IMG/VR virus record: IMGVR_UViG_2939127364_000002
Source: a virus
Taxonomy: Duplodnaviria > Heunggongvirae > Uroviricota > Caudoviricetes
Length of the DNA stretch: 42,479 nt
Reading direction: 5' to 3' (one strand)
Under the pieces are notes generated by a model. That model made no database searches, was not told the DNA's origin, and worked only from the letters and a program-made list of their open reading frames with translations. Below, piece by piece: positions 221-41,471 of this stretch. Position 1 is the first letter of the stretch, and every line of letters begins with the position of its first letter. Both the position numbers and the translations under genes were made by a program.

Positions 221-236
221 GGAATCGAACCTGCAA
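221..236. repeat. 16-bp exact copy (ggaatcgaacctgcaa) of the argW T-arm sequence; candidate att core copy
   Basis: Identical 16-mer at 41411..41426 inside the tRNA; flanks diverge immediately on both sides. Confidence 0.6.
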
Positions 237-244
237 ATCAGGTA

Positions 245-267
245 ATAAAAAACCGCCATCAGGCGGC
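245..267 (-). terminator. Rho-independent terminator at the end of the early-left operon
   Basis: Minus-strand hairpin ccgcc-(4 nt loop)-ggcgg followed by T-tract (A-run 245..252 on plus strand). Confidence 0.6.
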
Positions 268-426
268 TTGGTGTTCTTTCAGTTCTTCAATTCGAATATT
301 GGTTACGTCTGCATGTGCTATCTGCGCCCATAGCATCCAGTGGTTATAGCAGTCGTTGATGTTCTCTGCTTCGATAACTCTGTTGAATGGTTCTCCATTC
401 CATTCACCTGTGACTCGGAAGTGCAT
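259..426 (-). CDS. Hypothetical small protein (55 aa)
   Basis: ORF MHFRVTGEWNGEPFNRVIEAENINDCYNHWMLWAQ... not in the track (under 60 aa); GGAG 8 nt upstream of ATG; stop lies in the terminator loop. Confidence 0.3.
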   Translation of the reverse strand: MHFRVTGEWNGEPFNRVIEAENINDCYNHWMLWAQIAHADVTNIRIEELKEHQAA

Positions 427-526
427 TTATCATCTCCATAAAACAAAACTCGCCGTAGCGAGTTCAGATAAAAGAAATCCCCGCGAGTTCGAGGATTGTT
501 ATTCACCTTTGACGGCAAGTTGCAGG

Positions 527-1159
527 TTAGCCACGGTTCACCTCCTGCGGCGGTTCTGGTAGCGGCGTCCAGAACAAGGCGTTCCCTAACCACGATAAAG
601 TGCCGTCGCTCAACTCCACGTATTCCCCTTGCACCTGGCCTGCCATATACTCACCGTGCTTTGAATAAATTAAAATCCAATCATCTTGAGCGGGCATTCG
701 CGCACTACAGCTTATCCAAGCATCCGGAGTTACCGGATAGTTGCGCATTGCGACCTTTAATGCCTCATAGAAGCAACCTTTCAGATTGCTGAACTGACGC
801 CCATTTAGCGGGCCGTGTTCAGTCAGCATGTTGTGTAATTTCCATGCCGCGTCGTTTACTTCGCTGGATGGCAGGGAAGGCAACTTGTAAGTTTGGCTTA
901 CAGGTTCGGCTTCCAGTTCTGCTATGCGTTTTTTTGCTGCCTCCCGCTCAACACGCAGCTTCCCTACCGTTAGCGCAATATCCTCGTTCTCCTGGTCACG
1001 GCGTTTGATGTATTGCTGGTTCCTTTCCCGTTCATCCAGCAGCGCTAGCACAATCGATGGTGTTACCAGCTCATGGAAAAGGTCCGCGTCAAATCCCCAG
1101 TCGTCGTGCATTGCCTGCTCTGCCGCCTCACGCAGTGCCTGGTAATTAATTTCGCTCAC
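527..1159 (-). CDS. Phage protein with C-terminal DUF551-like domain
   Basis: C-terminus ...[18 protein letters not shown]...[10 protein letters not shown] matches the DUF551 signature; start placed at GTG 1159 with AGGAGG 6 nt upstream rather than track start 1180. Confidence 0.55.
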
Positions 1160-1323
1160 TGGTTGCCTCCTTTGCGCCACATCGCATTCAGATATTTGTT
1201 GTCATTAACAGAACCGAAACTATTTCTCTTAAGCAATTCCTCTCTCGATGGCATTGGCTTTACGCGTTGGCGAATAATCATTTCTGCCGGAAGAATGCCG
1301 GGATTGTATGCAAGTCCTCTCAT
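1159..1323 (-). CDS. Hypothetical small protein (54 aa)
   Basis: [34 protein letters not shown]... with AAGAGGAA RBS; its TGA overlaps the GTG start of the downstream gene (GTGA). Confidence 0.3.
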
Positions 1324-1339
1324 GGTAAATTCCTCTTTG

Positions 1340-1654
1340 TTAATTTATTCGTATGCCTGCTCTTTCTTCATCGAGTTTTTTTAGCTTGTATCGCATAGCT
1401 CTTACTGAATAAATTGAGCGGCAGGTTGCAATTGCTATTTCTTCTGCGGAGAACTTACCGAAAAGTGATACTTCGGCTCTTGTCCATCGTCTTCCACGAA
1501 GTCGGCTAACAATGTCAGCGCCAATCCTTGTTGCTTTCGCCATTACTGCTTTTTCAGTCCTTTCCAGTTTTTCAGCGATAACTTCAACTGGCATTGTCGC
1601 CGCTACTTCGCGCAAGAAATCGACTTCCCATTTCTCCCATGGAGTCTTTTTCAT
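1340..1654 (-). CDS. Hypothetical early protein (104 aa)
   Basis: Track ORF in the early-left gene string; no family recognised. Confidence 0.45.
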
Positions 1655-1665
1655 AGGCGATACCG

Positions 1666-2148
1666 TTATTTGATAAGAAGTGAAGGTTTCCCAACCTTGA
1701 GTTGAGCACCGGGGATATTTATTCCTGCTTTTAGTTGGTGTTTGATTGCCAGTTTGTCGGCTTTAATTGTCGTTTCAAACTCAACGTATTCAGGAGGAAG
1801 GGCGCTTGAGTCGATGATTTCTACAGTTTCTGACGGTTTGCGGATTGTTACCTGGTGAATACCTGCTCGAATCTTTTTCTTGCCAACCATTTCAAGCGAT
1901 GACGCTATATACGCCATAATGCTGTCAATCTTATTTTGAATTACTGCGGCTCTCTCATTTAGTGACTTTGCCTCTTCCTTGAGGCGTTCAGCATAACCAG
2001 ATTCATTTTTAATAATGGCGAGAAGTTGCTCTATTTTATCGGTAAATTCTCCTTCCATGCCTTCTATTGTGTCAGCAATCATCTCTGGCTCTAAATCTGA
2101 ATCCATCAATTTTGCGTATTCATTGGCTATTTCATATAGTTTGCTCAC
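1666..2148 (-). CDS. Recombination-associated protein, resembles Sipho_Gp157 family
   Basis: N-terminus VSKLYEIANEYAKLMD... and position immediately downstream of RecT; start moved to GTG 2148 with GGAGG 6 nt upstream. Confidence 0.45.
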   Translation of the reverse strand: MSKLYEIANEYAKLMDSDLEPEMIADTIEGMEGEFTDKIEQLLAIIKNESGYAERLKEEAKSLNERAAVIQNKIDSIMAYIASSLEMVGKKKIRAGIHQVTIRKPSETVEIIDSSALPPEYVEFETTIKADKLAIKHQLKAGINIPGAQLKVGKPSLLIK

Positions 2149-3043
2149 TGGCAACCTCCAGTTTCGCTTTGCATTCTATGTAAATGGCTTGTACGTTCTG
2201 CTGCAATTTCATTCCAGACGTCAGGCGATATGCTTCTGCAAAATATCGCTTCAAATCATCCATGTTTTCTGCCTGAGCCATTTCATCGCAAAGAAGTTGT
2301 ACTTTATCCATTATTTCCTGCTGGCGTTTCCGTTCATCTTCGCGGATATCTTCCTCTGATTTGTGCGGCATAACTGGTTCAGTCCACACACCTTCTTCTT
2401 CGTTTAGTACGTGAATAGCACTATCAAGACGTGATGCCTTAGGCCAATACTTGCTTGCACGCTTTACGACCGTCTTTCGCGCCATCTCATTCCAGTGATT
2501 TACCCATGGTCCTTTATCGCTGAATGCTGCCTTGCTTGTTTTCCTTACAGCCTCAATTTCAGCCAGACTCATCTCTTCCGTTAGATAATCACCTGCTGGC
2601 ATCTTAACTGTGCAGTAAACGCCAACGATATCACCACGATCACCGAAGGCGTTGTATTTATGGGTTGGTGCTTTATCAAGCCCGTTTGACTCATAGGTAT
2701 CGTTAGCATGAACAAGTTTTGCCTGACCCCATGAGATAACACCAGACTCCATTGCAATATGGAGCAATCCCATATAACTGATATCAAGGCACACCATGCC
2801 GTCGCGCGGAACCAGATAAGCCAGTTTGCTAGCTGGGTTTAAGGTGATGCCGATCGCCGCAACATTGATGATGGCGTTCTGTGCGCTGGTTGGATTTGCC
2901 AGTGCTGTTTTAGCCAGGTAATCGTTTTTCTGGAAATACTGAATTGCAAACTGGCTTTCCTTAGCCCATGTCACCGTCTGTTCAGTCAATGCTCCGCAGA
3001 ATAACTGCTCCTGCTGTTTAACGAATTCAACGATATTGCTCAT
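2132..3043 (-). CDS. recT: RecT-family single-strand annealing recombinase
   Basis: 303-aa ORF of typical RecT size and sequence character; GGAGAA RBS; sits in the recombination slot of the early-left operon. Confidence 0.7.
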   Translation of the reverse strand: MSNIVEFVKQQEQLFCGALTEQTVTWAKESQFAIQYFQKNDYLAKTALANPTSAQNAIINVAAIGITLNPASKLAYLVPRDGMVCLDISYMGLLHIAMESGVISWGQAKLVHANDTYESNGLDKAPTHKYNAFGDRGDIVGVYCTVKMPAGDYLTEEMSLAEIEAVRKTSKAAFSDKGPWVNHWNEMARKTVVKRASKYWPKASRLDSAIHVLNEEEGVWTEPVMPHKSEEDIREDERKRQQEIMDKVQLLCDEMAQAENMDDLKRYFAEAYRLTSGMKLQQNVQAIYIECKAKLEVASEQTI

Positions 3044-3351
3044 GCAGCTTCTCCAAAAATGTGTCTGCGTTTGAATATTGCGAAGGCATATTCAGCCTTA
3101 ACTCTTTCAGTTATTGCATCCCAGAACCATTCAGCGGCTTTTTCCTGATAGTTACAGTCATCATCTTCCAGCCAGTCGATAGCGTCCTTAGTGTGTTCAT
3201 CTGGTTTATATGAGCGAAGCATTTCGCTTATTGGGTCGCAACGTTTGCAGAGGCGATCAACTTCACTGTTGATTCGCTCGTAATCTTCATCAGTAAAACT
3301 TGCGATTATTTGCGATATTTCACGCTTATCATTCAGAGTCAGAATCATCAT
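3040..3351 (-). CDS. Hypothetical early protein (103 aa)
   Basis: Track ORF with AGGAG RBS 5 nt upstream of ATG; no family recognised. Confidence 0.5.
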   Translation of the reverse strand: MMILTLNDKREISQIIASFTDEDYERINSEVDRLCKRCDPISEMLRSYKPDEHTKDAIDWLEDDDCNYQEKAAEWFWDAITERVKAEYAFAIFKRRHIFGEAA

Positions 3352-3569
3352 CTTTCTCCTGTTCTTTGTGCTGATTGAGAATTTTGTTCATCTGACGAAT
3401 GAATTCTTCGTCTGACCAGTTATCTGTAAAACTCATTTCCTGCGATACCATGGAAGGTTGATAGCTGATTTCATCGCTTTATTTGCTTCAAGCCACATTT
3501 TGGAATCACCAATAAATCTGGCTATTACTGCTTTGTTTTGTGCTGCACGAAGCACCTGGTGATTGATGG

Positions 3570-3704
3570 CTATTTCATTGCGCATAACGCCTCCAGTTGT
3601 TTCTTTGCTGCTCTGATTAATTGTTTAACTCGGCGTGATAATTCAGATTCGTGCGGGTAGAAAGCGGACATGACGCCGCTACCCGCGAACTGAAAGTGCA
3701 TCAT
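3570..3704 (-). CDS. Hypothetical small protein (44 aa)
   Basis: MMHFQFAGSGVMSAFYPHESELSRRVKQ... with AAGGAG 7 nt upstream; the longer track ORF 3570..3809 would run through a terminator hairpin. Confidence 0.3.
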   Translation of the reverse strand: MMHFQFAGSGVMSAFYPHESELSRRVKQLIRAAKKQLEALCAMK

Positions 3705-3770
3705 GGGTAACTCCTTCTGTTTGATTACATAACGAAAACGCCTCAAGTGAAGCGTTATTGTTATGCATAT

Positions 3771-3794
3771 AAAAAAGCCCTCACACTGGAGGGC
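3771..3794 (-). terminator. Terminator-like hairpin within the early-left operon
   Basis: Minus-strand stem gccctc/gagggc with 6-nt loop followed by TTTTTT. Confidence 0.5.
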
Positions 3795-3912
3795 AAAGAA
3801 GATTTCCAATAATCAGAACAAGTCGGCTCCTGTTTAGTTACGAGCGACATTGCTCCGTGTATTCACTCGTTGGAATGAATACACAGTGCAGTGTTTATTC
3901 TGTTGTTTATGC

Positions 3913-3938
3913 CAAAAATAAAGGCCGACTATGCGGCC
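3913..3938 (-). terminator. Terminator-like hairpin directly after the 3939..4121 gene
   Basis: Minus-strand stem ggccg/cggcc with 6-nt loop followed by TTTATTTTTG. Confidence 0.5.
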
Positions 3939-4121
3939 TCAGAATGGTTTGTATCCATGTTTAAAGGCGAAATCGTATGCCTCATCATTAGTGCTGAAGT
4001 ATTCATAATCAGCAAATCCATCACGATAAAACTTGCAGCACCAATGAGGCGGAATGCCATCCTCATGACCATAGTCTTGATGGAACACATCCTCGACGAT
4101 GATATTTTCATCTTTTCCCAT
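3939..4121 (-). CDS. Hypothetical small acidic protein (60 aa)
   Basis: MGKDENIIVEDVFHQDYGHEDGIPPHWCCKFYRDGFADYEYF...; GAGGTGA RBS 4 nt upstream of ATG; rich in Asp/Glu and aromatics. Confidence 0.55.
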   Translation of the reverse strand: MGKDENIIVEDVFHQDYGHEDGIPPHWCCKFYRDGFADYEYFSTNDEAYDFAFKHGYKPF

Positions 4122-4411: not shown

Positions 4412-4774
4412 TTACCTGGCTGTCAGTTGTTTTGATTTCCGGTATCCTGCCGCGTAAATGGCTACGTTTGGAAGACATACACCAGTTTCTGGTTGCTTAT
4501 GTCCAAACTCATTCGCGTACACAATGGCTGCTCTCTCCAGATTGCGTCTGTATTCTTTCTGTTGCCAGATCACGTCCTGTGCCATGAACTTAATTGGCTT
4601 AGCGTCTTCTATGCGCTCAGGCGTTTCGTGAGTACCTTTAGCCTGAATCTGCGCTCTGCTTAGAGTAGGGCGGTGTAATACTTCTGAGCTTGCCGTAATC
4701 TCATTCTGGAGCGCTGCACGACGCTCACGACGACGACCTGATGCTGAGCCATTGAAAGCTGTTCTGCGTGTCAT
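4412..4774 (-). CDS. N: N-like transcription antiterminator
   Basis: Arginine-rich N-terminus ...GRRRERRAALQ... resembles the lambda N arginine-rich motif; first gene left of the oL region; AGGAGG 7 nt upstream of ATG. Confidence 0.65.
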   Translation of the reverse strand: MTRRTAFNGSASGRRRERRAALQNEITASSEVLHRPTLSRAQIQAKGTHETPERIEDAKPIKFMAQDVIWQQKEYRRNLERAAIVYANEFGHKQPETGVCLPNVAIYAAGYRKSKQLTAR

Positions 4775-4961: not shown

Positions 4962-5005
4962 TTTATCGAAATGATAAATCAATGGCAATAGCAAAATGAT
5001 AAATT
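4962..5005. promoter_or_regulatory. oL/pL operator region
   Basis: Two copies of ATGATAAAT (4972..4980, 4996..5004) plus TTTATCG at 4962..4968; the same motif recurs at oR. Confidence 0.5.
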
Positions 5006-5217: not shown

Positions 5218-5838
5218 TTAATGCTGGGGAGTGATTTTTTTGTTGTCTGTTGGCTGGGTATTTTGTGGCGGCGCTTGCAAAGTGGAAGGCTGTTGCAAAG
5301 GTGCGTGGTCTGACTTTAAAGCTGATACCAGCCCGGGAATCGCAACTATTACAGCGATAATGACACTAAAAATGGCTAATCGTATAGAAATACCCGACTG
5401 AACACCACTAATTGCGGTATTAACCCCTGTTATTTGTCCTTGAATTCCTTCGAATCTCCCATTAATTGCTTTTATATCGCCAGCAGCGCTATCCATCTTT
5501 CCATCGATCTTGGACGATAGAGAGTTTATGGCTGCATTAAGTGATGCAAATTGGACATTAACGCTTTCACGAGATAGAGCCATGTCAGCCCTAATGGAAG
5601 AAGCAATAGACTCCATCTCTGCTTTATTAGCAGCTAAGCGAGCATCAAGTTCCTCTCTGCTGATCGTTCCCACTTCTTCCTCCGTTTGTGGCGGTTTTAT
5701 GTAATTATTTTGCACCTTGGTGGGAGAATTATCAAATTCAGCCTCAAAATAGGAACCGCCAACAACCTTCAACCTCCGGCTTTCAGATATGTTGGTGTCT
5801 TGCTTTCCATGATTATTTAAATTGCTGTCGTCACTCAT
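5218..5838 (-). CDS. Membrane-anchored coiled-coil protein of unknown function (206 aa), distal gene of the cI operon
   Basis: Polar N-terminus, heptad-like central region, single hydrophobic segment IRLAIFSVIIAVIVAIPGLVSAL near the C-terminus, Pro/Gln-rich tail; ATGA overlap with the upstream gene. Confidence 0.6.
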   Translation of the reverse strand: MSDDSNLNNHGKQDTNISESRRLKVVGGSYFEAEFDNSPTKVQNNYIKPPQTEEEVGTISREELDARLAANKAEMESIASSIRADMALSRESVNVQFASLNAAINSLSSKIDGKMDSAAGDIKAINGRFEGIQGQITGVNTAISGVQSGISIRLAIFSVIIAVIVAIPGLVSALKSDHAPLQQPSTLQAPPQNTQPTDNKKITPQH

Positions 5839-6269
5839 AATAGCTCTACGGTGAAAAATGATTCATTTTTATGAAGTTCATTTTTAGGGTCTTCATTATC
5901 CTGCAATATCCCTATAACACTATACAGCCCTTTAGCTGGGACCCTAATTTCTTTCAATGTTACTATTACCTGTCCGCCAACCCCTGTTTCAAAATGGCTA
6001 TCTTTCGTATCGATGAAAAGTGAAACTGATTCCGAAGAGCCGTCAGGGAATTGAATTTCCTCACCTTTTTTTATAATTAGGTGCGCGGGGATTACCATAA
6101 TACCCAAATTATATCTTGAATTTGGTTTCAACCCGATCATACCAACCCTGAAATCAATTGATAGCCGCGCAGGAAATTCATTGCATGTAAAATTAAGCGT
6201 CGGTTGGTTGGGTTCTTCGCTGCTATCAAATGGGGTTATAAAAGATATTCTTTCTAAATTAAGTGCCAT
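5835..6269 (-). CDS. Hypothetical soluble protein (about 144 aa) between cI and the membrane protein
   Basis: Start placed at ATG 6269 (MALNLERISF...) with AGGAG 5 nt upstream; track start 6323 has no good RBS; no family recognised. Confidence 0.55.
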   Translation of the reverse strand: MALNLERISFITPFDSSEEPNQPTLNFTCNEFPARLSIDFRVGMIGLKPNSRYNLGIMVIPAHLIIKKGEEIQFPDGSSESVSLFIDTKDSHFETGVGGQVIVTLKEIRVPAKGLYSVIGILQDNEDPKNELHKNESFFTVELL

Positions 6270-6370
6270 AAATTCTCCTGCATCGCTGTATGCTCTACGA
6301 GCATCTCGGCGACTTATCATCACCCAAACGTCTCTTCAGGCCACTGGCTACCAGCTATGTGACGATGAAG

Positions 6371-7075
6371 TCACGAATTTTTCAGCCACTCCCTTGCCTC
6401 GATGTCATCCAGATGGCGAGATTGCTTCAGAATACCAGCCACATACTCCACCTTTGCTACTTGATGATAAGGCAACGTTATAGGCCTGTGGTCCTGGTTA
6501 ATGCTTGTAAATTGGTATTCTCCATCTCTGTCATAGCCAAGAACCTTAATCATGTTGTGTCCTTCAACGGTTCTGACAAACACCTCATCACCCGGGAATA
6601 CTTTGGTGTTAGGCTCAATGAGTACATATTCTCCTGATTTTATTCTGGGCCACATGCTGTCTCCTTTCACACGAAGACCAAAGGCATCTGGATCATCGCT
6701 ATAAATTTTGAGCCACCCATCGCGCTCTTCGGTCATCTCGATGGCACCATCAACACCAAGAATTGCCTCACCAACCACGCGCACTAACCCTTTTCTTACC
6801 TGACCGACAAAAGTTAAAGAATCTGAGCATGATGCAATTGGTGTTACATCATGCACCAAATCAAGCCACCCATTAGGTAACCCAAGTGCGGCTTCAAATT
6901 TTCTTGCTAGTTTATCCCCTATGTTTCGAGTGCTTTTTTCACCGGAGACTTGCGTGAGTTGAGAAGGGCTAACCCCAAGCTTATCGGCAAAGCTTGCATT
7001 AGTGTTACCCGCGATTTTTTTATGCTCATCTAGCAAAAACGCTAGATTTGATTTGCGAATATCTTTGTTTTCCAT
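6371..7075 (-). CDS. cI: CI-type prophage repressor (HTH plus S24 LexA-like autopeptidase domain)
   Basis: N-terminal HTH ...SFADKLGVSPSQLTQV...; C-terminal ...GDSMWP... serine-lysine dyad signature; divergent from cro across the operator region. Confidence 0.9.
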   Translation of the reverse strand: MENKDIRKSNLAFLLDEHKKIAGNTNASFADKLGVSPSQLTQVSGEKSTRNIGDKLARKFEAALGLPNGWLDLVHDVTPIASCSDSLTFVGQVRKGLVRVVGEAILGVDGAIEMTEERDGWLKIYSDDPDAFGLRVKGDSMWPRIKSGEYVLIEPNTKVFPGDEVFVRTVEGHNMIKVLGYDRDGEYQFTSINQDHRPITLPYHQVAKVEYVAGILKQSRHLDDIEAREWLKNS

Positions 7076-7100
7076 CCCACAATTTTCCCTCTATTTAGCA

Positions 7101-7180
7101 AATGGATAAATACGCAATATGATAAATTTACATTGCGGTTGATTTATCAAAATGGTAAAGTTATTCTGTATGATAAACGG
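7101..7180. promoter_or_regulatory. oR/pRM/pR operator region
   Basis: TGATAAA at 7120..7126 and 7171..7177, inverted TTTATCA at 7143..7149, GGATAAA at 7104..7110; lies between divergent cI and cro. Confidence 0.55.
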
Positions 7181-7188
7181 AGGCACTA

Positions 7189-7422
7189 ATGAGTAATGAA
7201 CTACTACGCTGGCGAAAAGAGGCTTCTAGTGAGGAATGGAAGCGACTCGCCGCATTAGCGAAAACTTCAGTTGGCTATCTTGACCAGATTGCATATGGAT
7301 TTCGAAGAGCTTCCCCTGATAAAGCGAATGCAATCGAAGAAGCTACTCGTAATTTCACGGGTTATAAACCTGTGAAAAAGGAAAACCTGGTGTTCGTATC
7401 GCGTAGAGCATCGGCAGCATAA
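7189..7422 (+). CDS. cro: Cro-like repressor (77 aa)
   Basis: Small basic protein, first rightward gene after the operators; GGAGG 6 nt upstream of ATG. Confidence 0.75.
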   Translation: MSNELLRWRKEASSEEWKRLAALAKTSVGYLDQIAYGFRRASPDKANAIEEATRNFTGYKPVKKENLVFVSRRASAA

Positions 7423-7460
7423 GTAACACCGCTATTTTCACAATGGACATTCGTCCTACG

Positions 7461-7474
7461 TCGCTGAAAAGCGA
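7461..7474 (+). promoter_or_regulatory. Candidate nutR boxB-like hairpin
   Basis: CTACG then UCGCU-GAAA-AGCGA between cro and cII; a second hairpin atgcgt/acgcat follows at 7505..7520. Confidence 0.4.
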
Positions 7475-7558
7475 GCCCCAAGATATCTGACCAACTAAGG
7501 CCATATGCGTTTCCACGCATACCTTTCAACTAACTATTCACTATTGGAAAATTAACAA

Positions 7559-7855
7559 ATGACACAAGCAAGTTACAGCAAGCCAACACAGCGAGAAATT
7601 GATCGCGCTGAAACTGATTTACTCATCAACCTGTCAACGCTTACCCAGCGCGGTCTGGCAAAGATGATTGGCTGTCATGAATCGAAGATAAGCAGAACGG
7701 ACTGGAGATTTATTGCTTCGGTCTTGTGTGCTTTCGGAATGGCATCAGACATCAGTCCGATTAGCAGGGCTTTTAAGTATGCGCTTGATGAAATCACAAA
7801 GAAAAAATCCCCGGCCGCCACCGAGGATTTTAAGCAAATTGATATGCAATTCTGA
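7559..7855 (+). CDS. cII: CII-like transcriptional activator
   Basis: HTH ...LTQRGLAKMIGCHESKISR...; C-terminus KKKSPAATEDFKQIDMQF parallels lambda CII KKRPAATERSEQIQMEF. Confidence 0.8.
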   Translation: MTQASYSKPTQREIDRAETDLLINLSTLTQRGLAKMIGCHESKISRTDWRFIASVLCAFGMASDISPISRAFKYALDEITKKKSPAATEDFKQIDMQF

Positions 7856-7887
7856 GGGAATTACTGGATCAATCCACAGGAGTAATT

Positions 7888-8049
7888 ATGACAAAACGTC
7901 GTAAGAAATACCAGGAAAAAGAAGAGATTCGACACCCTGATTCACCTGAGGGATTAGTGGTAGCCGCAGCAAATAACAGGGCGTTCGCAGAGCGCCTTGT
8001 TGGTGTTTACAGACTAGCCAAAGCAGGAGTGAAACATGGGCGTCGTTAA
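7888..8049 (+). CDS. Hypothetical small basic protein (53 aa)
   Basis: MTKRRKKYQEKEEIRHPDSPEGLVVAAANN... with AGGAG 6 nt upstream; not in the track. Confidence 0.3.
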   Translation: MTKRRKKYQEKEEIRHPDSPEGLVVAAANNRAFAERLVGVYRLAKAGVKHGRR

Positions 8050-8098
8050 ATTAGCTGATTACAGGCATAACCCTGTACAACATCAGGAGGCATCCAGT

Positions 8099-8926
8099 AT
8101 GGGGTATGTCTCTATACACCGCCAGTTTATGGACAGCAGGCTCTATAAGGACTCTCAGGCAGTACATCTTTGGCTTCACTTAATCCTCAAGGCTAATCAC
8201 GAATCTACTGTCGTCAATACGGATATCGGTCCGATAACTGTTGATCGCGGTCAGATGATAACTGGACGCCCGTCGCTGGTCAGAGAAACATTCATCCCCG
8301 ACAACAAAGTTCGGAGCTTATTACGGACTTTTGAGTCGAAAGGTATGCTTAATATTTGCTCGATGGGGAAGAAATTTAGCCTGTTTACAATCGTTAAATA
8401 TGACGATTTTCAGGCAAAAAATTGTCCAACGGTTGTCCAACGGTTGTCCAACGCAAACACCAGTAATGGCGCGGCTCTCAGCGGAGATTGTCCAACGGTT
8501 GTCCAACGGTTGTCCATAAACAATAATATAAATAATATCTCTAATACTGACGTATTAGAGAGTGCCACAGCAGACAAAAAGTCTGACAAGAAAAAACCTT
8601 CCGTTAGCTGTCAGGATGTTGTCGATGCTTACCACGAAATCCTTCCTGAAGCGCCAAGAATCCGCGCACTGAATGACAAGCGTAAAAACCAGATCCGAAC
8701 GTTCTGGCGCAAAGCCGGAGTGATAACCCGCCAGCTTGACGGGCATGGGTTCACGATGCAGGACTGGAGAAATTATTTGAGCTACGTTGGCGAAAATTGC
8801 CGATGGATGTTCGAAGAGCGCCCAAACCATCAACGCGGAACCGTCTGGCACAAAAAGGGATTTGATTTCCTGCTTAACGATAATACCTACCTGAAAGTTC
8901 GTGAGGGTGAACACGATGACCGATAA
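8099..8926 (+). CDS. Replication initiator, O-like
   Basis: Start placed at ATG 8099 (MGYVSIHRQF...) with AGGAGG RBS instead of track start 8036; ori-like iterons lie inside the gene; followed by the helicase gene. Confidence 0.7.
   Translation: MGYVSIHRQFMDSRLYKDSQAVHLWLHLILKANHESTVVNTDIGPITVDRGQMITGRPSLVRETFIPDNKVRSLLRTFESKGMLNICSMGKKFSLFTIVKYDDFQAKNCPTVVQRLSNANTSNGAALSGDCPTVVQRLSINNNINNISNTDVLESATADKKSDKKKPSVSCQDVVDAYHEILPEAPRIRALNDKRKNQIRTFWRKAGVITRQLDGHGFTMQDWRNYLSYVGENCRWMFEERPNHQRGTVWHKKGFDFLLNDNTYLKVREGEHDDR
8422..8517. repeat. Replication origin iterons: two clusters of three tandem 11-bp repeats (TTGTCCAACGG)
   Basis: Copies at 8422..8454 and 8488..8517 (last copy partial), then AT-rich stretch 8515..8560; all inside the O-like gene. 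Confidence 0.7.
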
Positions 8927-10352
8927 TTTTTATGCGCCGCCCCATAGCATCGAGGCAGAGCAGGCGGTGATTGGTGGATTGCTTCTGGATGATGACAGCA
9001 GTGAGCGCGTCCAGAAAGTTCTGGCGATGCTGAAGCCCGATTCATTTTACAGCCGACCACACAAAATCCTTTTCGAAGAAATAACCAGAATGCACCGTGA
9101 GCAAAAGCCAGTAGATGGCCTGACGCTTTTCGATGAACTGGAGCGTAAATCGTTAACGGTGTCTGTTGGCGGTTTTGCTTATATCGCTGAGATCGCAAAG
9201 AACACGCCAAGCGCAGCAAACATCGTTGCCTATGCAATGCAGGTTCGTGAAACCGCAATGGAACGCTACGCCATCAACCGCATGACTGAAGCGACGGAAT
9301 TGCTCTATTCCCGCAACGGAATGACTGCAACGCAGAAGTACGAAGCTATTCAGTCGATTTTCACGCAACTGACAGACCATGCAAAAACCGGATCGCGTCG
9401 CGGCCTTCGCTCATTTGGTGAGGTCATGGAAGACTGGGTTAGCGACCTTGAGAAGCGATTTGACCCGTCAGGCGAACAACGAGGAATGAGCACAGGGATC
9501 CCATCGCTGGACAGGATGCTGTCACCGAAAGGCCTGGTGAAAGGCTCTCTGTTTGTCATTGGCGCTCGCCCTAAGATGGGGAAAACGACGCTATACAGCC
9601 AGATGGCAATCAACTGCGCAGTGCATGAGAAAAAGCCCGCTCTGATGTTCAGCCTTGAAATGCCCGGTGACCAGATACTGGAAAAACTGGTAGGACAGAA
9701 GTCAGGTGTTAACCCGAATATTTTTTACCTTCCGGCGACAAATGACGCTGATGACGGCTATCAGGGTGATTACGATGGTGACTTCAACAGGGCGATCGAA
9801 ACAGCCAATCGCTTGAGTGAAATCGACCTGCTTTACATCGACGACACGCCGGGATTATCTCTGGCTCAAATCGTCAGCGAAAGCCGTCGAATCAAGCGAG
9901 AAAAAGGATGTGTTGGCATGATTCTGGTCGATTACCTGACACTAATGACCGCTGAGAAGGCCGATCGCAACGACCTTGCTTACGGCATGATCACCAAAGG
10001 ACTGAAGAACCTTGCCAAAGAGCTTGATTGCGTTGTTGTGCTTCTGACACAGCTTAACCGCGCACTGGAAAGCCGAACCAATAAACGCCCATTACCAAGT
10101 GACTCACGAGATACAGGGCAGATTGAACAGGATTGCGATTATTGGGTGGGGATCCATCGTGAAGGCGCTTTTGATGACAGTGTTCCACCTGGTGAAACCG
10201 AACTAATCCTTCGTCTCAATCGTCATGGCAATACCGGCACGGTGTATTGCATTCAGGCAAATGGCGCTATTTATGACACAGACCAACAGTCTGCTGAAAT
10301 GCGCCGACGTGAACGCGAGGAACCGCAGTCCAAGAAGAAAGGAGGATTCTGA
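8916..10352 (+). CDS. DnaB-type replicative DNA helicase
   Basis: N-terminus ...FYAPPHSIEAEQAVIGGLLLD...; Walker A GARPKMGKTT; start at ATG 8916 (GAGGGTG RBS) overlapping the O-like gene end. Confidence 0.9.
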   Translation: MTDNFYAPPHSIEAEQAVIGGLLLDDDSSERVQKVLAMLKPDSFYSRPHKILFEEITRMHREQKPVDGLTLFDELERKSLTVSVGGFAYIAEIAKNTPSAANIVAYAMQVRETAMERYAINRMTEATELLYSRNGMTATQKYEAIQSIFTQLTDHAKTGSRRGLRSFGEVMEDWVSDLEKRFDPSGEQRGMSTGIPSLDRMLSPKGLVKGSLFVIGARPKMGKTTLYSQMAINCAVHEKKPALMFSLEMPGDQILEKLVGQKSGVNPNIFYLPATNDADDGYQGDYDGDFNRAIETANRLSEIDLLYIDDTPGLSLAQIVSESRRIKREKGCVGMILVDYLTLMTAEKADRNDLAYGMITKGLKNLAKELDCVVVLLTQLNRALESRTNKRPLPSDSRDTGQIEQDCDYWVGIHREGAFDDSVPPGETELILRLNRHGNTGTVYCIQANGAIYDTDQQSAEMRRREREEPQSKKKGGF

Positions 10353-10455
10353 TGACCATCTACATCACTGAGCTGATAACAGGGTTATCGTTACTAATGG
10401 TTCTTACTGTATATATTATTAAGTATATTCTTTATGCGAATAAAAAAACTAATTG
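10351..10455 (+). CDS. Possible 34-aa hydrophobic peptide
   Basis: MTIYITELITGLSLLMVLTVYIIKYILYANKKTN; AAAGGAGGA 6 nt upstream; ATG overlaps the helicase stop (TGATGA); speculative. Confidence 0.3.
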
Positions 10456-11045
10456 ATCACGATGAGCTTCTGTCAACATTATCATATGACTCAGAAACAG
10501 GAATATTTAAATGGCTAAAAACAAATTCAGTAGTAAGAGTAAAAGGTAGTATTGCTGGAGGTGTTAGTGGTGGTTATATATGCATTAGCATAAATAATGT
10601 TTTGTATTATGCGCATAGACTTGCTTGGTTCTATGTATACAAAAAATGGCCTCCTAAGTTTATTGATCATGTAAATGGGAACAGACTTGACAATAGGATT
10701 TCAAATCTAAGACTGGCAACAGAAGAGCAGAATGCAAGAAACATTGTAGGGAATAGATTAAACACATCCGGTGCAATTGGAGTGTCTTGGTATAAGCCAA
10801 CTGGCAGGTGGAAGTCTTATGTTGGTTATAAAAATAAGACAATATCGTTAGGGTATTTCGACAGCAAAGAAGATGCAGCATTCATAGCAGCACTAGCAAG
10901 AAAGAAACTATATGGAACTTATGCGAGTAAAGCACTTAATTGCGAGCATGAGCTTTTATCTCAATTTAATAATGATGAGGATAAACTTGCGGAATATCTT
11001 AAGGAAAAATCTAAAAGGACTCGAAAGCGTGTTAAAAACAGATAA
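10434..11045 (+). CDS. HNH endonuclease with AP2 DNA-binding domain (homing-endonuclease-like)
   Basis: ...YAHRLAWFYVYKKWPPKFIDHVNGNRLDNRISNLRLATEEQNARN... (HNH) and ...GVSWYKPTGRWKSYVGYKNKTISLGYF... (AP2-like); gene is visibly AT-rich. Confidence 0.75.
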   Translation: MRIKKLIDHDELLSTLSYDSETGIFKWLKTNSVVRVKGSIAGGVSGGYICISINNVLYYAHRLAWFYVYKKWPPKFIDHVNGNRLDNRISNLRLATEEQNARNIVGNRLNTSGAIGVSWYKPTGRWKSYVGYKNKTISLGYFDSKEDAAFIAALARKKLYGTYASKALNCEHELLSQFNNDEDKLAEYLKEKSKRTRKRVKNR

Positions 11046-11105: not shown

Positions 11106-11333
11106 ATGAGTTCGATGACTGAGCTTGTCTGCGCCGACTTTCAGGAGAACATTGGTCGTGCAAAGCGGTACTGGTCTGCTTCCAGACTTCCGACTGGCGA
11201 GAGACAGAAAAACGCCCCTAAGCCACGGATCTATCCGCGCGACCGCGTTCTTCGCCGGTTGGTTAAAATCGATACTGATTTTCAGTGTGACAGAATTATC
11301 CAGCAATTAGATTTGATGACTGATGATGAATGA
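11106..11333 (+). CDS. Hypothetical nin-region protein (75 aa)
   Basis: Track ORF with GGAGG-type RBS; no family recognised. Confidence 0.5.
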   Translation: MSSMTELVCADFQENIGRAKRYWSASRLPTGERQKNAPKPRIYPRDRVLRRLVKIDTDFQCDRIIQQLDLMTDDE

Positions 11334-12272: not shown

Positions 12273-12451
12273 GGCGACAGCGACGAAGTATCACCGACAT
12301 CATCTGCGAAAACTGCAAATACCTTCCAACGAAACGCTCCAGAAATAAACGCAAGCCAATCCCAAAAGAATCTGACGTAAAAACCTTCAATTACACGGCT
12401 CACCTGTGGGATATCCGGTGGCTAAGAGAACGTGCGAGGAAAACAAGGTGA
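12269..12451 (+). CDS. Hypothetical small basic protein (60 aa)
   Basis: [30 protein letters not shown]...; AGGAGGG RBS; ATGA overlap with the methyltransferase stop. Confidence 0.4.
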
Positions 12452-23567: not shown

Positions 23568-23574
23568 TCACTCA

Positions 23575-36555: not shown

Positions 36556-37578
36556 ATGGCAGTAAAAATTTCAGGTGTACTGAAAGACGGCACAGGAAAA
36601 CCGGTACAGAACTGCACAATCCAGCTGAAAGCAAAACGTAACAGCACCACGGTGGTGGTGAACACGCTGGCCTCAGAAAATCCGGATGAAGCCGGGCGTT
36701 ACAGCATGGACGTTGAGTACGGTCAGTACAGCGTTATTCTGTTGGTGGAAGGATTCCCGCCGTCACATGCCGGGACCATCACCGTGTATGAAGATTCCCG
36801 ACCCGGTACGCTGAATGATTTTCTCGGTGCCATGACGGAGGATGATGCCCGTCCGGAGGCTCTGCGGCGTTTTGAGGCGATGGTGGAAGAAGTTGCCCGC
36901 CAGGCATCGGAGGCATCGCGGAATGCCACCGCCGCATGGCAGGCATCTGAACAGGCGCAGACATCAGCAGGTCAGGCATCGGAAAGCGCCACGGCAGCAG
37001 TGAATGCAGCCGGAGCGGCAGAAGCATCAGCCACACAGGCAGCCTCATCCGCAGCATCTGCAACCAATGCGGCAAATAGCGCTTCTGCTGCAAATACTGC
37101 AAAAACCGGCGCAGAAGCTGCAAGAGATGCTGCAAATACTGCAAAAACCGGCGCAGAAGCTGCAAGAGATGCTGCAAATACTGCAAAAACCGGCGCAGAA
37201 GCTGCAAGAGATGCAGCTCTGGATGCCCAAACTGCTGCTGAATTAGCTGAAGCAAATGCAAAAATTTCTGAAACAAATGCAGCTGAGAGTAAGCGATTAG
37301 CAGAAGCAGCGATAGATGTGGCAAACTCATCTGCAGGAATATATCAGGACACCACATCTGGTTTGGCGGGAACGGCAACCGGAGGTTATTTTTCGGTGCC
37401 GTCACCCCTGGATGACGAGGTGCTGATTTTGTATCGGAATGACGCCGGAATTGCTACTGAAGTTAAGAGATACCCGAGCGCGGCGGGGGTTGAAAACACG
37501 CGCGTATCGATGATAGGGGTGGCGGCCAGTCTGGTGCTGACACAATCAATTATTGCGGCGCATCACGCGTTTCTATGA
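36556..37578 (+). CDS. stf: Side tail fibre protein, proximal part (lambda Stf N-terminal domain)
   Basis: MAVKISGVLKDGTGKPVQNCTIQLKAKRNSTTVVVNT... matches the lambda Stf N-terminus; contains three perfect 42-bp tandem repeats. Confidence 0.8.
   Translation: MAVKISGVLKDGTGKPVQNCTIQLKAKRNSTTVVVNTLASENPDEAGRYSMDVEYGQYSVILLVEGFPPSHAGTITVYEDSRPGTLNDFLGAMTEDDARPEALRRFEAMVEEVARQASEASRNATAAWQASEQAQTSAGQASESATAAVNAAGAAEASATQAASSAASATNAANSASAANTAKTGAEAARDAANTAKTGAEAARDAANTAKTGAEAARDAALDAQTAAELAEANAKISETNAAESKRLAEAAIDVANSSAGIYQDTTSGLAGTATGGYFSVPSPLDDEVLILYRNDAGIATEVKRYPSAAGVENTRVSMIGVAASLVLTQSIIAAHHAFL
37087..37212 (+). repeat. Three perfect tandem 42-bp repeats inside stf (14-aa unit AANTAKTGAEAARD)
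   Basis: Identical units starting at 37087, 37129 and 37171. Confidence 0.9.
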
Positions 37579-37594
37579 CAATGAGGAAACTGAA

Positions 37595-38914
37595 ATGAGC
37601 GTAGAAACAGAACTAGCAAAACTGACGACAGCAACAGCCGCGCTACTGGAGTCGGTGAATGTAAACAAAGCGGCGCTGGATGCAGCAGTCATAGCGGCAA
37701 ATGCAGCAGAAGCAAAGGCCACCGAACAGGCTGGCGTGTCAACAACCAAAGCGGCCGAGGCAGTAGCCGCCGCGCAAGATGCGTTAAATCGGGCTCAAGC
37801 TGCGTTGGATTCAGCGGCCACGGCAGCAGCGCAAGCTGCCGCAGCCACAGCGGTTGCGACAGCGAATTTAGAAACCGCACTACCAGCCAGCGCATACATT
37901 AAAGATGCTAACCGTTACGCCGTCGAGCGCGCGTCAGGCGGGCGTCAAACCGTGCTGTATGATGATCTAGGCAATCCAAGCGTGATGAATATCATCCCAA
38001 TTTTTCGTTACGAGGATCTCGGCTACAGCGAGGACATGGGAACCGGGGTAGTCAGCTGCTTTGATGTTGGCACTGGCACCAACAAAAGCGAGATTTTTAT
38101 CGGTGCATTTCAGTCATCATTGGTCGGCAGTCGCGCAGTGTCATTGCCGCGTACAGGCCCGGCGACATTCGTAAACTTCGATACAGCAAAAGGCTACTGC
38201 GCAAACAAAGGAGCTGGCTGGCATCTGATGACAATGCACGAGTGGGCAGCAATTTCGCTGTGGTGCATGGCTAATGGCTTCGAGCCGCGCGGAAACACGA
38301 ACTTCGGACGCGCACATGATCGCTACGTAGAGCGAGGTCGCCGCATGGATGGCGGACTGCCGGGCGATACCGCCGGAACACCGCGCGTGCATGCGGGATC
38401 AGGGCCGGATGCGTGGCGGCACAATAATTCGCCGTGGGGAATTAGTGATTTAGTCGGCAACGTATGGGAATGGCTAGACGGATTCAAGTTGCAAGATGGA
38501 CAAATCATTGCCAGTACATTTAACACGCAAGCTGAAGCAAGTTGGGCTGCACAAGCCGCCTATTTCGATGCAACGCAGACCACCGGCGGTGCGCCGCGCC
38601 TGTCTGATGCAGTAGTCAATCGCCTGGGAGCAATCGGCGATAACACGACCGACGGATACTCAGCAAGCGGAAATTTCGACGTTATGGAAAAAACAGGCAC
38701 ATATGTCAGCAATCAGCTGCTGAAGCGTCTATTGGTCGAGCCATCGACAGTGCTGCCGAAAGGTCGCGTATATATGCGAAATTTTGGCGAGCGGCTCCCG
38801 TATCGTGGCGGCGCTTGGGACTACGGCATCAATGCCGGCCTCGCCGCGCTCGCTTGCATCGCTTCGCGCGACTTTGCGCGCACCAGCATCGGGTTCCGCC
38901 TCGCTTTTGCGTGA
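37595..38914 (+). CDS. Distal tail fibre protein with C-terminal FGE-sulfatase (SUMF1)-like domain
   Basis: Ala-rich N-terminal region; C-terminal ...GWHLMTMHEWAAI...GNVWEWLDGF...RGGAWDYG...SIGFRLAFA matches formylglycine-generating-enzyme family motifs; GAGGA RBS before ATG 37595. Confidence 0.65.
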   Translation: MSVETELAKLTTATAALLESVNVNKAALDAAVIAANAAEAKATEQAGVSTTKAAEAVAAAQDALNRAQAALDSAATAAAQAAAATAVATANLETALPASAYIKDANRYAVERASGGRQTVLYDDLGNPSVMNIIPIFRYEDLGYSEDMGTGVVSCFDVGTGTNKSEIFIGAFQSSLVGSRAVSLPRTGPATFVNFDTAKGYCANKGAGWHLMTMHEWAAISLWCMANGFEPRGNTNFGRAHDRYVERGRRMDGGLPGDTAGTPRVHAGSGPDAWRHNNSPWGISDLVGNVWEWLDGFKLQDGQIIASTFNTQAEASWAAQAAYFDATQTTGGAPRLSDAVVNRLGAIGDNTTDGYSASGNFDVMEKTGTYVSNQLLKRLLVEPSTVLPKGRVYMRNFGERLPYRGGAWDYGINAGLAALACIASRDFARTSIGFRLAFA

Positions 38915-38958
38915 CCTGATGTTGTGTTTTCTGATGGCGCCACGACAGTGGCGCTTTG

Positions 38959-39081
38959 CCTGGAGGCTGTCGCATGAATGAGTTAATCATCGAGCAAAAA
39001 GTAAGGGAGATGATCTTGTATGGCTACATCGCACTGCGGCAACTGCCAAGAGCTAACACATACAGACTGAGAAATCATTAT
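38959..39081 (+). CDS. Possible small protein (40 aa)
   Basis: MNELIIEQKVREMILYGYIALRQLPRANTYRLRNHYSQNP with GGAGG 8 nt upstream; not in the track. Confidence 0.25.
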
Positions 39082-39111
39082 TCTCAGAACCCATGACCAA
39101 AGGAGCTAAAA

Positions 39112-39492
39112 ATGACAAAAACATATCTGCACGCCGGCATCGCGCACGCTGATACATCAGAAGAATACATGATGGAGCTAGGCATCGACGCCGACACCAG
39201 AGCAGCAATCATGAGCCAAATTGACTTTGAAACAGCGCAGGATGCAGTAGCAGCAAAAAAACTGCGTGATGCCGCCGTAGCTGCCATCAAAGTAACTGTA
39301 AGTGGCAAAGTTTTCGATGGAGACGAGGTCGCGCAGGGGCGCATGGCGAGAGCGGTGGCAGCAGCTGAAAGCGCGACCATCACCACATATCAATGGAAAC
39401 TTGCAGACAACAGCGTCGCTACAGTGTCGCTGGATGAGCTAAAGCAGGCGCTGGCGTTGGCATTCCAAGCTCAAAGCGAATTATGGGTATAG
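39112..39492 (+). CDS. Hypothetical protein downstream of the tail fibres (possible fibre accessory protein)
   Basis: 126-aa track ORF with AAAGGAG RBS; family not confidently recognised. Confidence 0.45.
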   Translation: MTKTYLHAGIAHADTSEEYMMELGIDADTRAAIMSQIDFETAQDAVAAKKLRDAAVAAIKVTVSGKVFDGDEVAQGRMARAVAAAESATITTYQWKLADNSVATVSLDELKQALALAFQAQSELWV

Positions 39493-40077
39493 GCGATCTG
39501 CAACTGATTGCACCCATTGGGGAGATAATAAATGATATACAGAACCATGTAAACGGCGCTCGCAACATTTTAGCGGCGGGGCACGCCGTACTTGCCTGTG
39601 GAGGGACGGTGCAGTCAGACCGCCCGTTGAAGCAGGAACCAGACGCTGAGCAATCAGCCGTCACCCACTAATGGGAATCCCCCTCCTGAGTCACGAAGTG
39701 CGAAGGTGGGGGAGGATGTCAATCTGGTGCTGCTGTATCAACTCGCATCAGCAGTATCCGGTATTTCTTTCACTCGCTTAGAGCGGTGGTTTCTTCCTCC
39801 GTCGCAATACCTGCATCAACAGCATCCTGACGCCGGTCAATCTCTGAGTCTGCCTGCGCTCGTAAATGAACGTTTACGAAAATGAATATCCTCCACAGCG
39901 TAATCAAGACGTAACTGTGGCGGGCATTGAAAATCTTTACTCACTCACTAACCAGAATTCAGCCTCTTCAAACATTTCCTGAACAGTACGGCTTATCTGT
40001 TCTTTCTCATGCTTGCTGGCGTCAGTGTTGATCGCCGGCAGTGTCATCATCGGTTTGCAAGGCTTTGCGCTGCTTTT

Positions 40078-41235
40078 CTATGACACCTTCTCATCAAGCC
40101 AATCCGCCCACCACTGCATCATTTCTCTGCGCTTATCGAGATACTGAGCATGGTTGTAAATTCCACGTACAGATCCGCCGTTGGCATGTGCCAGTTGCAC
40201 TTCAATGGCGTCGGCAGGCCATTCGTGCTCGTTCATAATCGTGCTGAATTCATGCCTGAATCCGTGACCGCTTTCCAGACCTTCATAGCCGATTTGTTTG
40301 ATCACAAGCAATACCGCGTTCTCGCAGATTGGCTTCTTCTTATCGTTGCGCCCGGCAAAAACAAACTCTGAGACTGGTTTGGTGATTGAGCTTAGCGTAG
40401 TGAGAAGTTCAACCACCTGGTCTGACATCGGGACCACATGAATTTTGCGTCCCTTCATCACACTGGCGTCGATGGTGATAATCCTGTTTTCAAAATCGAC
40501 GTTCTTCCATAGCATGGAACGAAGCTCTTTCGTTCTTAGGGCTGTATAACGTAAAACTTTTGTCGCAATGAGCGATACGATACTTCCTGAAAATGTTGCC
40601 AGTGCTTTGTTGAATGCAGGGATCTGGTCTGCTGGAAGGAACGGGAAGTTCTTCTTGCGGTATCCCTTCATGGCGTCAGCAAGGTCAGGTGCCGGGTTAT
40701 ATTTAGCCCTACCAGTGACAATAGCGTAACGGAAAACCTCGCCGCATCTTCTGCGGGCTTTGTTGGCTCGCTCCATTGCACCGCGATCTTCAAATCTGCG
40801 GATTACTTCCAGCAGTTGCATCGGCTCAATATCCTGAATTTCAAGGCCGCCGATGATGGGTAAAATGTCGTCATCAAACATTTTTGCAAGTTCATTTGCA
40901 TAGCCTACTGACCAGACTTGCTTCTTGTGCTCGTACCATTCCTTGTAAATGGCGCTAAAGGAATTGTTGTTAGACGAAGTCTTTTTCGCTTTTACCGGAT
41001 CGATACCAACCGAGATGTCTTTCCTCGCGGTCCATGCTTTATCCCTTGCCTCCTGCAAAGTCATAAGCGGATATTTTCCGACGGTCAGGATTTTCTCCTT
41101 ACCGTCAATCTTGTAGCGAAGCTGCCATACCTTTTTCCCGGATACAGGAACATAAAGGTACAGGCCATTACCATCGAGAAGGCGGTATGGTTTTTCTTTC
41201 GGCTTTGCTGCTTCAATCTGCTTAACGGTGAGCAT
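40078..41235 (-). CDS. intS: Tyrosine integrase, IntS-like
   Basis: MLTVKQIEAAKPKEKPYRLLDGNGLYLYV... recognised as the CPS-53/KplE1 integrase; start placed at ATG 41235 rather than track start 41271; adjacent to argW. Confidence 0.9.
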   Translation of the reverse strand: MLTVKQIEAAKPKEKPYRLLDGNGLYLYVPVSGKKVWQLRYKIDGKEKILTVGKYPLMTLQEARDKAWTARKDISVGIDPVKAKKTSSNNNSFSAIYKEWYEHKKQVWSVGYANELAKMFDDDILPIIGGLEIQDIEPMQLLEVIRRFEDRGAMERANKARRRCGEVFRYAIVTGRAKYNPAPDLADAMKGYRKKNFPFLPADQIPAFNKALATFSGSIVSLIATKVLRYTALRTKELRSMLWKNVDFENRIITIDASVMKGRKIHVVPMSDQVVELLTTLSSITKPVSEFVFAGRNDKKKPICENAVLLVIKQIGYEGLESGHGFRHEFSTIMNEHEWPADAIEVQLAHANGGSVRGIYNHAQYLDKRREMMQWWADWLDEKVS

Positions 41236-41281
41236 GGGTAAAAATCCGGTGGGTAAAATTATTTTATCCACTTTTTACCCG
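41236..41281. promoter_or_regulatory. Cluster of GGGTAAAA / TTTTACCC 8-mers upstream of intS (candidate recombination-protein binding sites)
   Basis: GGGTAAAA at 41236..41243 and 41251..41258, inverted TTTTACCC at 41273..41280. Confidence 0.35.
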
Positions 41282-41396
41282 TCATGGAGTGCGGCTGTCA
41301 ACGATCTGACGCGAACCATGACGAACCGTGAATATACGGAAGGCTTGATATTCAGGGGATTTTGCGGACTGGTACGGATGGGAGCGAACTGATAAA

Positions 41397-41471
41397 TGGT
41401 GTCCCCTGCAGGAATCGAACCTGCAATTAGCCCTTAGGAGGGGCTCGTTATATCCATTTAACTAAGAGGAC
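41397..41471 (-). tRNA. argW: tRNA-Arg (anticodon CCU)
   Basis: 75-nt cloverleaf GTCCTCTTAGTTAAATGGATATAACGAGCCCCTCCTAAGGGCTAATTGCAGGTTCGATTCCTGCAGGGGACACCA with anticodon CCT and encoded CCA. Confidence 0.9.
41411..41426. repeat. att core copy within the argW T-arm
   Basis: Exact 16-bp match to 221..236. Confidence 0.6.

Follow-up and report, generated by a model that had tools for sequence, protein, structure and literature searches.

The argW locus and the limits of the prophage

The window analysed here is the whole of a 42,479-nt stretch of DNA from a tailed virus (IMG/VR record IMGVR_UViG_2939127364_000002). Nearly all of it is occupied by a lambdoid prophage of ~41.5 kb, which lies between torI on the left and intS and the host tRNA gene argW on the right. 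That intS and torI flank a prophage at argW had been proposed in a sequence-only reading of the same DNA, and this placement was upheld by detection of a tRNA-Arg(CCU) gene, the single RNA gene found in the window by ARAGORN and Rfam (the Rfam scan returned no RNA gene besides it), and by amino acid (aa) identities to the Escherichia coli K-12 proteins of 99.5% for IntS and 100% for TorI. The Pfam arm-binding, central and catalytic domains of IntS are all present. The first base of the window falls in the torI stop codon, and torI stands ~40 kb from intS, at the opposite end of the prophage and uncoupled from int. The features at the two ends are as follows:

1-201, minus strand: torI, recombination directionality factor (RDF, excisionase)
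221-236, no strand assigned: left copy of the 16-nt direct repeat GGAATCGAACCTGCAA, matching the argW T-arm and located 19 nt upstream of torI
250-269, minus strand: hairpin and T-run resembling an intrinsic terminator, where the leftward early operon ends; on the torI strand it directly precedes the 16-mer
40078-41235, minus strand: intS, P4-type tyrosine integrase, 385 aa
41236-41411, minus strand: attL, with the P' arm containing the intS promoter region and the 16-nt core CTGCAGGGGACACCAT (41396-41411), placed from the published core
41397-41471, minus strand: argW, tRNA-Arg(CCU), a host gene (ARAGORN, Rfam) whose 3' end the phage core restores
41411-41426, within argW: right copy of the 16-nt direct repeat, in the argW T-arm
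41547-42479, right of argW: yfdC, 99.7% aa identity to K-12

The att core published for KplE1, HK620, Sf6 and Kapi1 is the 16-nt sequence CTGCAGGGGACACCAT (PMC2951348, PMC8787464). One exact match to this core is present in the window (41396-41411), overlapping the 3' end of argW and abutting the T-arm 16-mer inside that gene. In K-12 and Sf6 the core of attR or attP lies 73 nt past the torI stop. Because the core occurs only once, on the argW side, torI is placed inside the prophage, which overruns the left end of the window by ~90 nt; torI lies at the attR-proximal end of the element, and the attR core should be found 74-89 nt to the left of window base 1. At the other end, the intS promoter is predicted to lie within attL, with IntS transcribed away from attL.

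The sequence-only reading had set the limits of the prophage at 221 and 41426, and here it has to be corrected, since these positions belong to the T-arm repeat GGAATCGAACCTGCAA and not to the att core, and torI is to be included. The repeat itself is far beyond chance, with 2 exact copies observed and 0.05 expected in shuffles. An identical 16-mer is found 19 nt upstream of torI both in K-12 (in CPS-53, at 11476-11491 of the K-12 reference stretch L001) and in the free phage Sf6, for which the used or annotated core is CTGCAGGGGACACCAT, and the 16-mer was rejected as the crossover site. Excision at the 16-mer would, moreover, deprive argW of its 3' acceptor strand, and a synthetic torI-16mer-argW junction had no match in the 5,426 complete E. 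coli genomes searched.

The 16-mer is instead a conserved piece of the IntS/TorI module. Salmonella phage g341c keeps 11 of its 16 nt, while an Erwinia phage with the same core contains no copy of it; in the annotation of Sf6, a putative promoter pI overlies the 16-mer. In the attP layout, the torI cassette is inserted between two halves of a 31-nt argW 3' segment; candidate roles for the 16-mer are a promoter or an Int-binding element, or it may be what is left of a longer identity block. From ~244 onwards the window resembles lambda, HK022, 434 and Stx phages. The 16-mer therefore marks the limit of the exchangeable recombination module on its inner side, and the hairpin at 250-269 the mosaic boundary with lambda and HK022-type phages.

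The DNA shared with K-12 comprises yfdC-argW-intS (97.9% nt identity, a block that includes the attL-intS stretch) and torI plus 50 nt (98.0% nt identity), and nothing else, corresponding in K-12 to L001 502-2897 and 11461-11711 only. The K-12 element at the argW site is CPS-53 (KplE1), and its length of 10,215 bp agrees with the ~10 kb given for it in the earlier reading. The internal proteins of CPS-53, yfdG through ypdJ, have no homologue in the window. The suggestion that the prophage is a relative of CPS-53 thus holds for the recombination module and fails for every other CPS-53 protein, and kinship is best regarded as limited to that module.

Gene content and intactness

Between these ends lies the full lambdoid set of immunity, replication, lysis, packaging, head and tail genes, as had been read from the sequence, now assigned by PHROGs and Pfam and backed by full-length alignments. 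The genes follow the lambdoid order cIII-N-(cargo)-cI-cro-cII-O-P-nin-Q-lysis-late genes, with operators common to OL and OR. Window positions 6324-10384 are 98.8% identical in nucleotide sequence to phage mEp506, which is deposited as a complete genome with K-12 as recorded host, and over the immunity-region regulatory DNA the identity to this phage is ~99%. End-to-end alignment with mEp506 was obtained for cI, cII, O, helicase, Q, RusA, NinH, methyltransferase and endolysin (93-100% aa identity), and all 22 proteins from the terminase-associated HNH protein to Lom are full length relative to a PGAP-annotated prophage of strain AB104 (88-100% aa identity). The late-region DNA is 94-96% identical to the phage records vB_EcoM-606R7, vB_EcoS-640R1 and phi467. 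Overall, every comparable gene is full length, with 85-100% aa identity to the counterpart found in either the viable phage or the annotated prophage, except for Rz (78%). Alignment with mEp506 or the AB104 prophage revealed no frameshift or truncation in essential genes, in line with the earlier remark that no open reading frame (ORF), except possibly stf, was obviously disrupted. Since all genes that can be aligned to a reference are full length, the prophage is probably viable.

The early, immunity, replication and nin-Q features are:

259-4121, minus strand: leftward early accessory genes, including small genes of unknown function (PHROGs, Pfam)
259-426, minus strand: orf55 (PHROGs/Pfam)
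527-1180, minus strand: Ead/Ea22-DUF551 (PHROGs/Pfam)
1666-2154, minus strand: Mu Gam-like (PHROGs/Pfam)
2132-3043, minus strand: RecT (PHROGs/Pfam)
3433-3585, minus strand: Kil (PHROGs/Pfam)
3570-3809, minus strand: cIII-like (PHROGs/Pfam)
4412-4774, minus strand: N-like antiterminator (phrog_271; 85% aa identity to mEp506 N)
4964-5005, no strand assigned: OL operator repeats with the AAATGATAAAT motif, a repeat family common to OR
5218-6323, minus strand: two cargo genes between N and cI (phrog_5820 and phrog_5893 only)
6371-7075, minus strand: cI repressor with LexA-like S24 autocleavage domain (PF00717; 99.6% aa identity to mEp506 cI)
7098-7161, no strand assigned: OR operator repeats, three copies (motif match to OL)
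7189-7422, plus strand: cro, 77 aa (PHROGs, mEp506 comparison)
7559-7855, plus strand: cII (PHROGs, mEp506 comparison)
8036-8926, plus strand: O-like initiator (PHROGs; full length, 99.3% aa identity to mEp506 O)
8916-10352, plus strand: DnaB-like helicase (PHROGs; full length, 99.8% aa identity to mEp506 P)
10434-11045, plus strand: free-standing HNH homing-type endonuclease (phrog_99; weak PADLOC match to a homing endonuclease)
11106-14790, plus strand: nin region and late regulator (PHROGs, mEp506 comparison)
14167-14790, plus strand: Q antiterminator (full length relative to mEp506)

The cI repressor contains the GDSM and K motifs, and because it combines an S24 autocleavage domain with matching operator repeats at OL and OR, induction of the prophage by the SOS response is plausible. 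The adjacent cro gene differs from the deposited cro of mEp506 (PV340542.1) by one extra C in a C-run (window 7311-7314); the mEp506 record is one C shorter (around 8183) and yields a product of 61 aa, against 77 aa in the window. The allele of the window occurs in 33 IMG/VR contigs and that of mEp506 in none, and a frameshift in the window cro was rejected, the window allele being the common one. Neither version of cro has a match in Pfam. Either a sequencing error or a variant allele of cro probably accounts for the short form in the mEp506 record.

The cargo pair at 5218-6323 occupies the slot of hicCBA in mEp506. The first gene encodes a 206-aa protein with a coiled coil and a C-terminal membrane helix, and the second a 162-aa protein. 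The slot between N and cI is a frequent site of exclusion or defence genes in lambdoid phages; PADLOC assigned no defence function to this pair, and for the 206-aa protein Pfam and NCBIfam gave sub-threshold matches only, far under the curated cut-offs. The HNH endonuclease gene (10434-11045) lies in a low-GC stretch (0.40) directly after the helicase gene, at a place where mEp506, nearly identical to the window elsewhere in this region, contains no HNH gene. Among the leftward genes, those for recombination (1666-3351, minus strand) include RecT and the Mu Gam-like protein, without a recognisable exonuclease partner; a 103-aa protein encoded next to RecT (3040-3351, minus strand) has no annotated function.

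The nin region encodes NinB, an N6-adenine methyltransferase, NinE, NinF, a KilAC/Ant-like protein, a DUF1364 protein, RusA and NinH. The methyltransferase, NinE, NinF, KilAC/Ant-like, DUF1364, RusA, NinH and Q proteins are full length relative to mEp506, whereas NinB and a small ORF (11106-11333) have no match there and are assigned from PHROGs (the NinB profile is covered over positions 8-157 of 161).

The late features are:

15225-16453, plus strand: lysis cassette of holin, GH24 endolysin, Rz and embedded Rz1 (PHROGs, mEp506 comparison)
16188-16400, plus strand: Rz1, lipobox VSAC, embedded in Rz
16616-17170, plus strand: Rha-family regulator, accessory (phrog_518)
17584-23567, plus strand: HK97-type packaging and head module (PHROGs; full length, 92-100% aa identity to the AB104 prophage)
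23618-32282, plus strand: head-tail connector and tail module (AB104 comparison)
26399-26405, plus strand: slippery AAAAAAG for the G/T chaperones (sequence motif)
26750-29956, plus strand: tape measure protein (AB104 comparison)
32343-36491, plus strand: central tail fibre J, 1160 aa, 98.4% aa identity, and the outer-membrane protein Lom, 97.0%, both full length (AB104 comparison)

The packaging and head genes are arranged in the order HNH, TerS (P27 family, 18060-18554), TerL, YmfR, portal, prohead protease and a major capsid protein of HK97 fold, and the tail module includes the major tail protein, the G/T chaperones, M, L, K and I. The prophage is best described as a mosaic of mEp506-type immunity and replication genes, an HK97-type packaging and head module, and a lambda-type tail with J and Lom.

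Side-fibre genes and the retroelement remnant

To the right of Lom lies a side-fibre module that includes the remnant of a diversity-generating retroelement (DGR), with the following features:

36550-37578, plus strand: side-tail-fibre (Stf) proximal protein, 342 aa (PF08400, prophage tail fibre N-terminal domain)
37595-38914, plus strand: distal fibre protein of the DGR variable-protein type, FGE-sulfatase/C-type-lectin fold, 439 aa (PF03781)
38790-38909, plus strand: DGR variable region (VR), at the C-terminal end of the distal fibre protein (comparison with the template repeat of E. coli ET5)
38937-38954, plus strand: GC-rich hairpin downstream of the VR (sequence)
38974-39153, plus strand: DGR deletion scar, joining 79 nt from the start of avd to ~100 nt from the end of the reverse transcriptase gene (ET5 comparison)
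39112-39492, plus strand: DUF4376 protein (Pfam, ET5 comparison)
39739-39875, on the opposite strand in the ET5 annotation: fragment of a tail-fibre-assembly (tfa) gene (ET5 comparison)

The sequence-only reading had suspected a disrupted stf in this region, where ORFs at 36550-37578 and 37553-38914 overlap in different frames. A frameshifted stf was rejected, since the second fibre gene has its own ATG at 37595 behind a GAGGAA ribosome-binding site, and E. coli ET5 contains two genes in the same phase; the supposed disruption is better read as two intact, separate genes. The distal fibre protein matches PDB 5vf4 (E = 2e-59) and shares 46% aa identity with ORF35 of Vibrio phage VHML, and the name given to it by PGAP in ET5 agrees with this assignment.

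ET5 has a complete DGR at this place: downstream of its distal fibre gene stand avd, a template repeat of 120 nt and the gene for a reverse transcriptase. Comparison of the VR of the window with the 120-nt template repeat of ET5, used because the window's own template repeat is lost, gave 20 mismatches, of which 15 fall at template adenines, in AAY codons (Fisher p = 1.5e-8). Relative to ET5, ~1.48 kb containing avd, the template repeat and the reverse transcriptase gene is missing (ET5 positions 6693-8175), and the combination of reverse transcriptase, Avd and template repeat beside a target gene, which defines a DGR, was not found in the window. The locus is thus better regarded as a DGR remnant than as a DGR, that is, a variable region that has lost its mutagenic machinery by deletion, leaving the VR frozen. 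The sequence from 39112 to 39875 is residual and non-essential.

The module is rare. The avd-template repeat-reverse transcriptase cassette occurs in 1 of 5,426 complete E. coli genomes (ET5), and the DGR-less form of the fibre module in one further genome of this set (EC6), bringing the module to 2 of 5,426. The distal fibre protein is found in no Escherichia phage record of INPHARED; in IMG/VR it has one relative at 87% aa identity, all others being at most 56% identical, and in the GTDB scan it was found at three marine gammaproteobacterial loci only.

Interpretation and comparison with known systems

Taken together, the window very probably contains a lambdoid siphovirus prophage of ~41.5 kb, integrated into the 3' end of argW by a recombination module of the KplE1/HK620/Sf6 type and assembled from known parts. 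Its life cycle can be proposed by homology. In the lysogen, cI, with its LexA-like S24 domain, would occupy OL and OR, and SOS-induced autocleavage of cI would derepress pL and pR. N would then allow transcription from pL to proceed past the terminator at 250-269 into torI, and TorI, together with autoregulated IntS and IHF, would recombine attL with attR at CTGCAGGGGACACCAT. The resulting circle would be replicated by O and the DnaB-like helicase, and Q would activate the lysis, HNH/terminase, head and tail genes.

Several points weigh against this interpretation. Intact frames alone are no proof of function, and the comparison was made at the level of ORFs. The attR site is outside the window, so that the completeness of the excision substrate rests on unseen sequence. 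No complete E. coli genome or phage record covers at least 80% of either half of the window, and because the exact mosaic is absent from the complete E. coli genomes and phage records, there is no identical phage of demonstrated viability; such uniqueness is the usual mosaicism of lambdoid phages. Finally, the decay of the fibre-associated DGR represents some gene loss, though in a non-essential region. Side fibres are dispensable in lambda, and lambda PaPa itself lacks them; for this reason, decay of the DGR and fibre module is no argument against viability.

These same points are the main support for the alternative that the prophage is cryptic, non-inducible or non-infectious, having been domesticated or recently inactivated by lesions invisible in the ORFs (in attR, cos or promoters, or missense changes), with the position of attR beyond the window, the absence of the exact mosaic elsewhere, and the 1.48-kb DGR deletion together with the tfa fragments at 39739-39875 taken as signs of ongoing decay of the right arm. 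Such an outcome appears unlikely, given the full length and high identity of the comparable genes, the near-identity of the immunity regulatory DNA to that of mEp506, and the dispensability of the decayed parts.

A second alternative is that the element is an enlarged, intact CPS-53, resembling the ancestor of the K-12 remnant. It shares the integration site with CPS-53, and its IntS and TorI are nearly identical or identical to those of K-12, but the DNA matches are confined to the two short K-12 stretches given above, the interval yfdG-ypdJ has no protein homologue in the window, and the module is known to shuffle among unrelated phages. In addition, CPS-53 carries gtr O-antigen modification genes, a typical feature of P22-like podoviruses such as Sf6, while the window encodes a lambda-type tail. 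This origin is very improbable. The weakest alternative, a mobile unit spanning 221-41426 and bounded by GGAATCGAACCTGCAA that would leave torI outside, in an older remnant, draws on the exactness of the 16-nt repeat and is effectively refuted by the occurrence of the 16-mer upstream of torI in K-12 and Sf6, where the core lies beyond torI, by the loss of the argW acceptor strand that it would entail, and by the absence of the corresponding junction from complete genomes.

With a viable lambdoid prophage retained as the preferred interpretation, a more far-reaching proposal may be added. With both the VR and the hairpin downstream of it intact, the host range could still be rewritten by a compatible DGR acting in trans (e.g. 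that of ET5). The prophage might then be a viable phage with mEp506 immunity and a fossil, DGR-diversified side-fibre tip of lectin fold that is rewritable in trans, and, separately, the 16-mer might be a relic of the insertion of the RDF gene into an ancestral 31-nt identity block between attP and argW. This joint proposal is speculative, and we consider it doubtful.

The practical consequences concern annotation and phage biology. The locus provides an example of a conspicuous 16-nt direct repeat distinct from the att site, and automated boundary callers and readers will misplace attR and drop the excisionase gene. The combination of mEp506 immunity with IntS and TorI proteins close to those of K-12 makes cross-immunity, and cross-excision with CPS-53, predictable. 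DGR-type receptor-binding proteins on a lambda-type tail have rarely been documented in E. coli, and the decayed fibre module is one example. The unusual details of the prophage are confined to the DGR fibre remnant and the T-arm 16-mer.

HK620, Sf6 and Kapi1 are P22-like podoviruses. The recombination module of the prophage resembles that of KplE1 (CPS-53), HK620, Sf6, CUS-3 and Kapi1 in its integration at the argW 3' end at CTGCAGGGGACACCAT, in the position of intS by attL with torI opposite, and in the T-arm 16-mer upstream of torI, as well as in the IntS and TorI sequences shared with K-12. Unlike the members of this group, to which the rest of its genome is unrelated, the element in the window is a lambda-tailed siphovirus. 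Functional phages documented to carry the module are HK620, Sf6, CUS-3 and Kapi1 (PMC2951348, PMC8787464), and the module is highly conserved and shuffled among unrelated functional phages and argW prophages (PMC2951348). In the present comparison, phage HK633 was also found to carry torI.

Lambdoid and Stx prophages at argW have already been published, and full-size prophages with this module are known at the site; the prophage described here adds another mosaic. The prophage Argw*W (strain W), Stx1a and Stx2a prophages at argW, and a prophage between dsdC and torI in E. coli R18 share with it the site, the module and a complete lambdoid content, but are different mosaics, and the window contains no stx or other recognisable virulence cargo. 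The R18 prophage (NZ_CP186506.1; dsdC-torI/argW) joins early genes of P22 type to Mu-like sheath tail genes; it contains several pseudogenes (anti-RecBCD, KilAC antirepressor) and illustrates the free shuffling of the module.

The closest relatives of the immunity and replication region are mEp506 and the HK022/HK542/mEpX2 group, with the 98.8% nt identity to mEp506 extending over 4 kb (cI, OR, cII, O and helicase). The nin-Q region is 96.6% identical to that of mEp506, and the gene order is lambdoid in both. In contrast, mEp506 has a different integrase and excisionase, encoded next to each other as in lambda, has hicCBA, lacks the HNH gene after the helicase gene, and has other head, tail and fibre genes.

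For the fibre module, the nearest systems are VHML ORF35, the protein of PDB 5vf4 and the complete DGR of ET5. The C-terminal FGE/C-type-lectin domain, the VR at the extreme C-terminus, differing from the template repeat in an adenine-specific way at AAY codons, and the GC-rich hairpin after the VR are common to these and the window. In contrast, the window has lost avd, the template repeat and the reverse transcriptase, and its module is fitted to a lambda-type tail by the N-terminal ~100 aa of the distal protein and by the partner of that protein, Stf-N.

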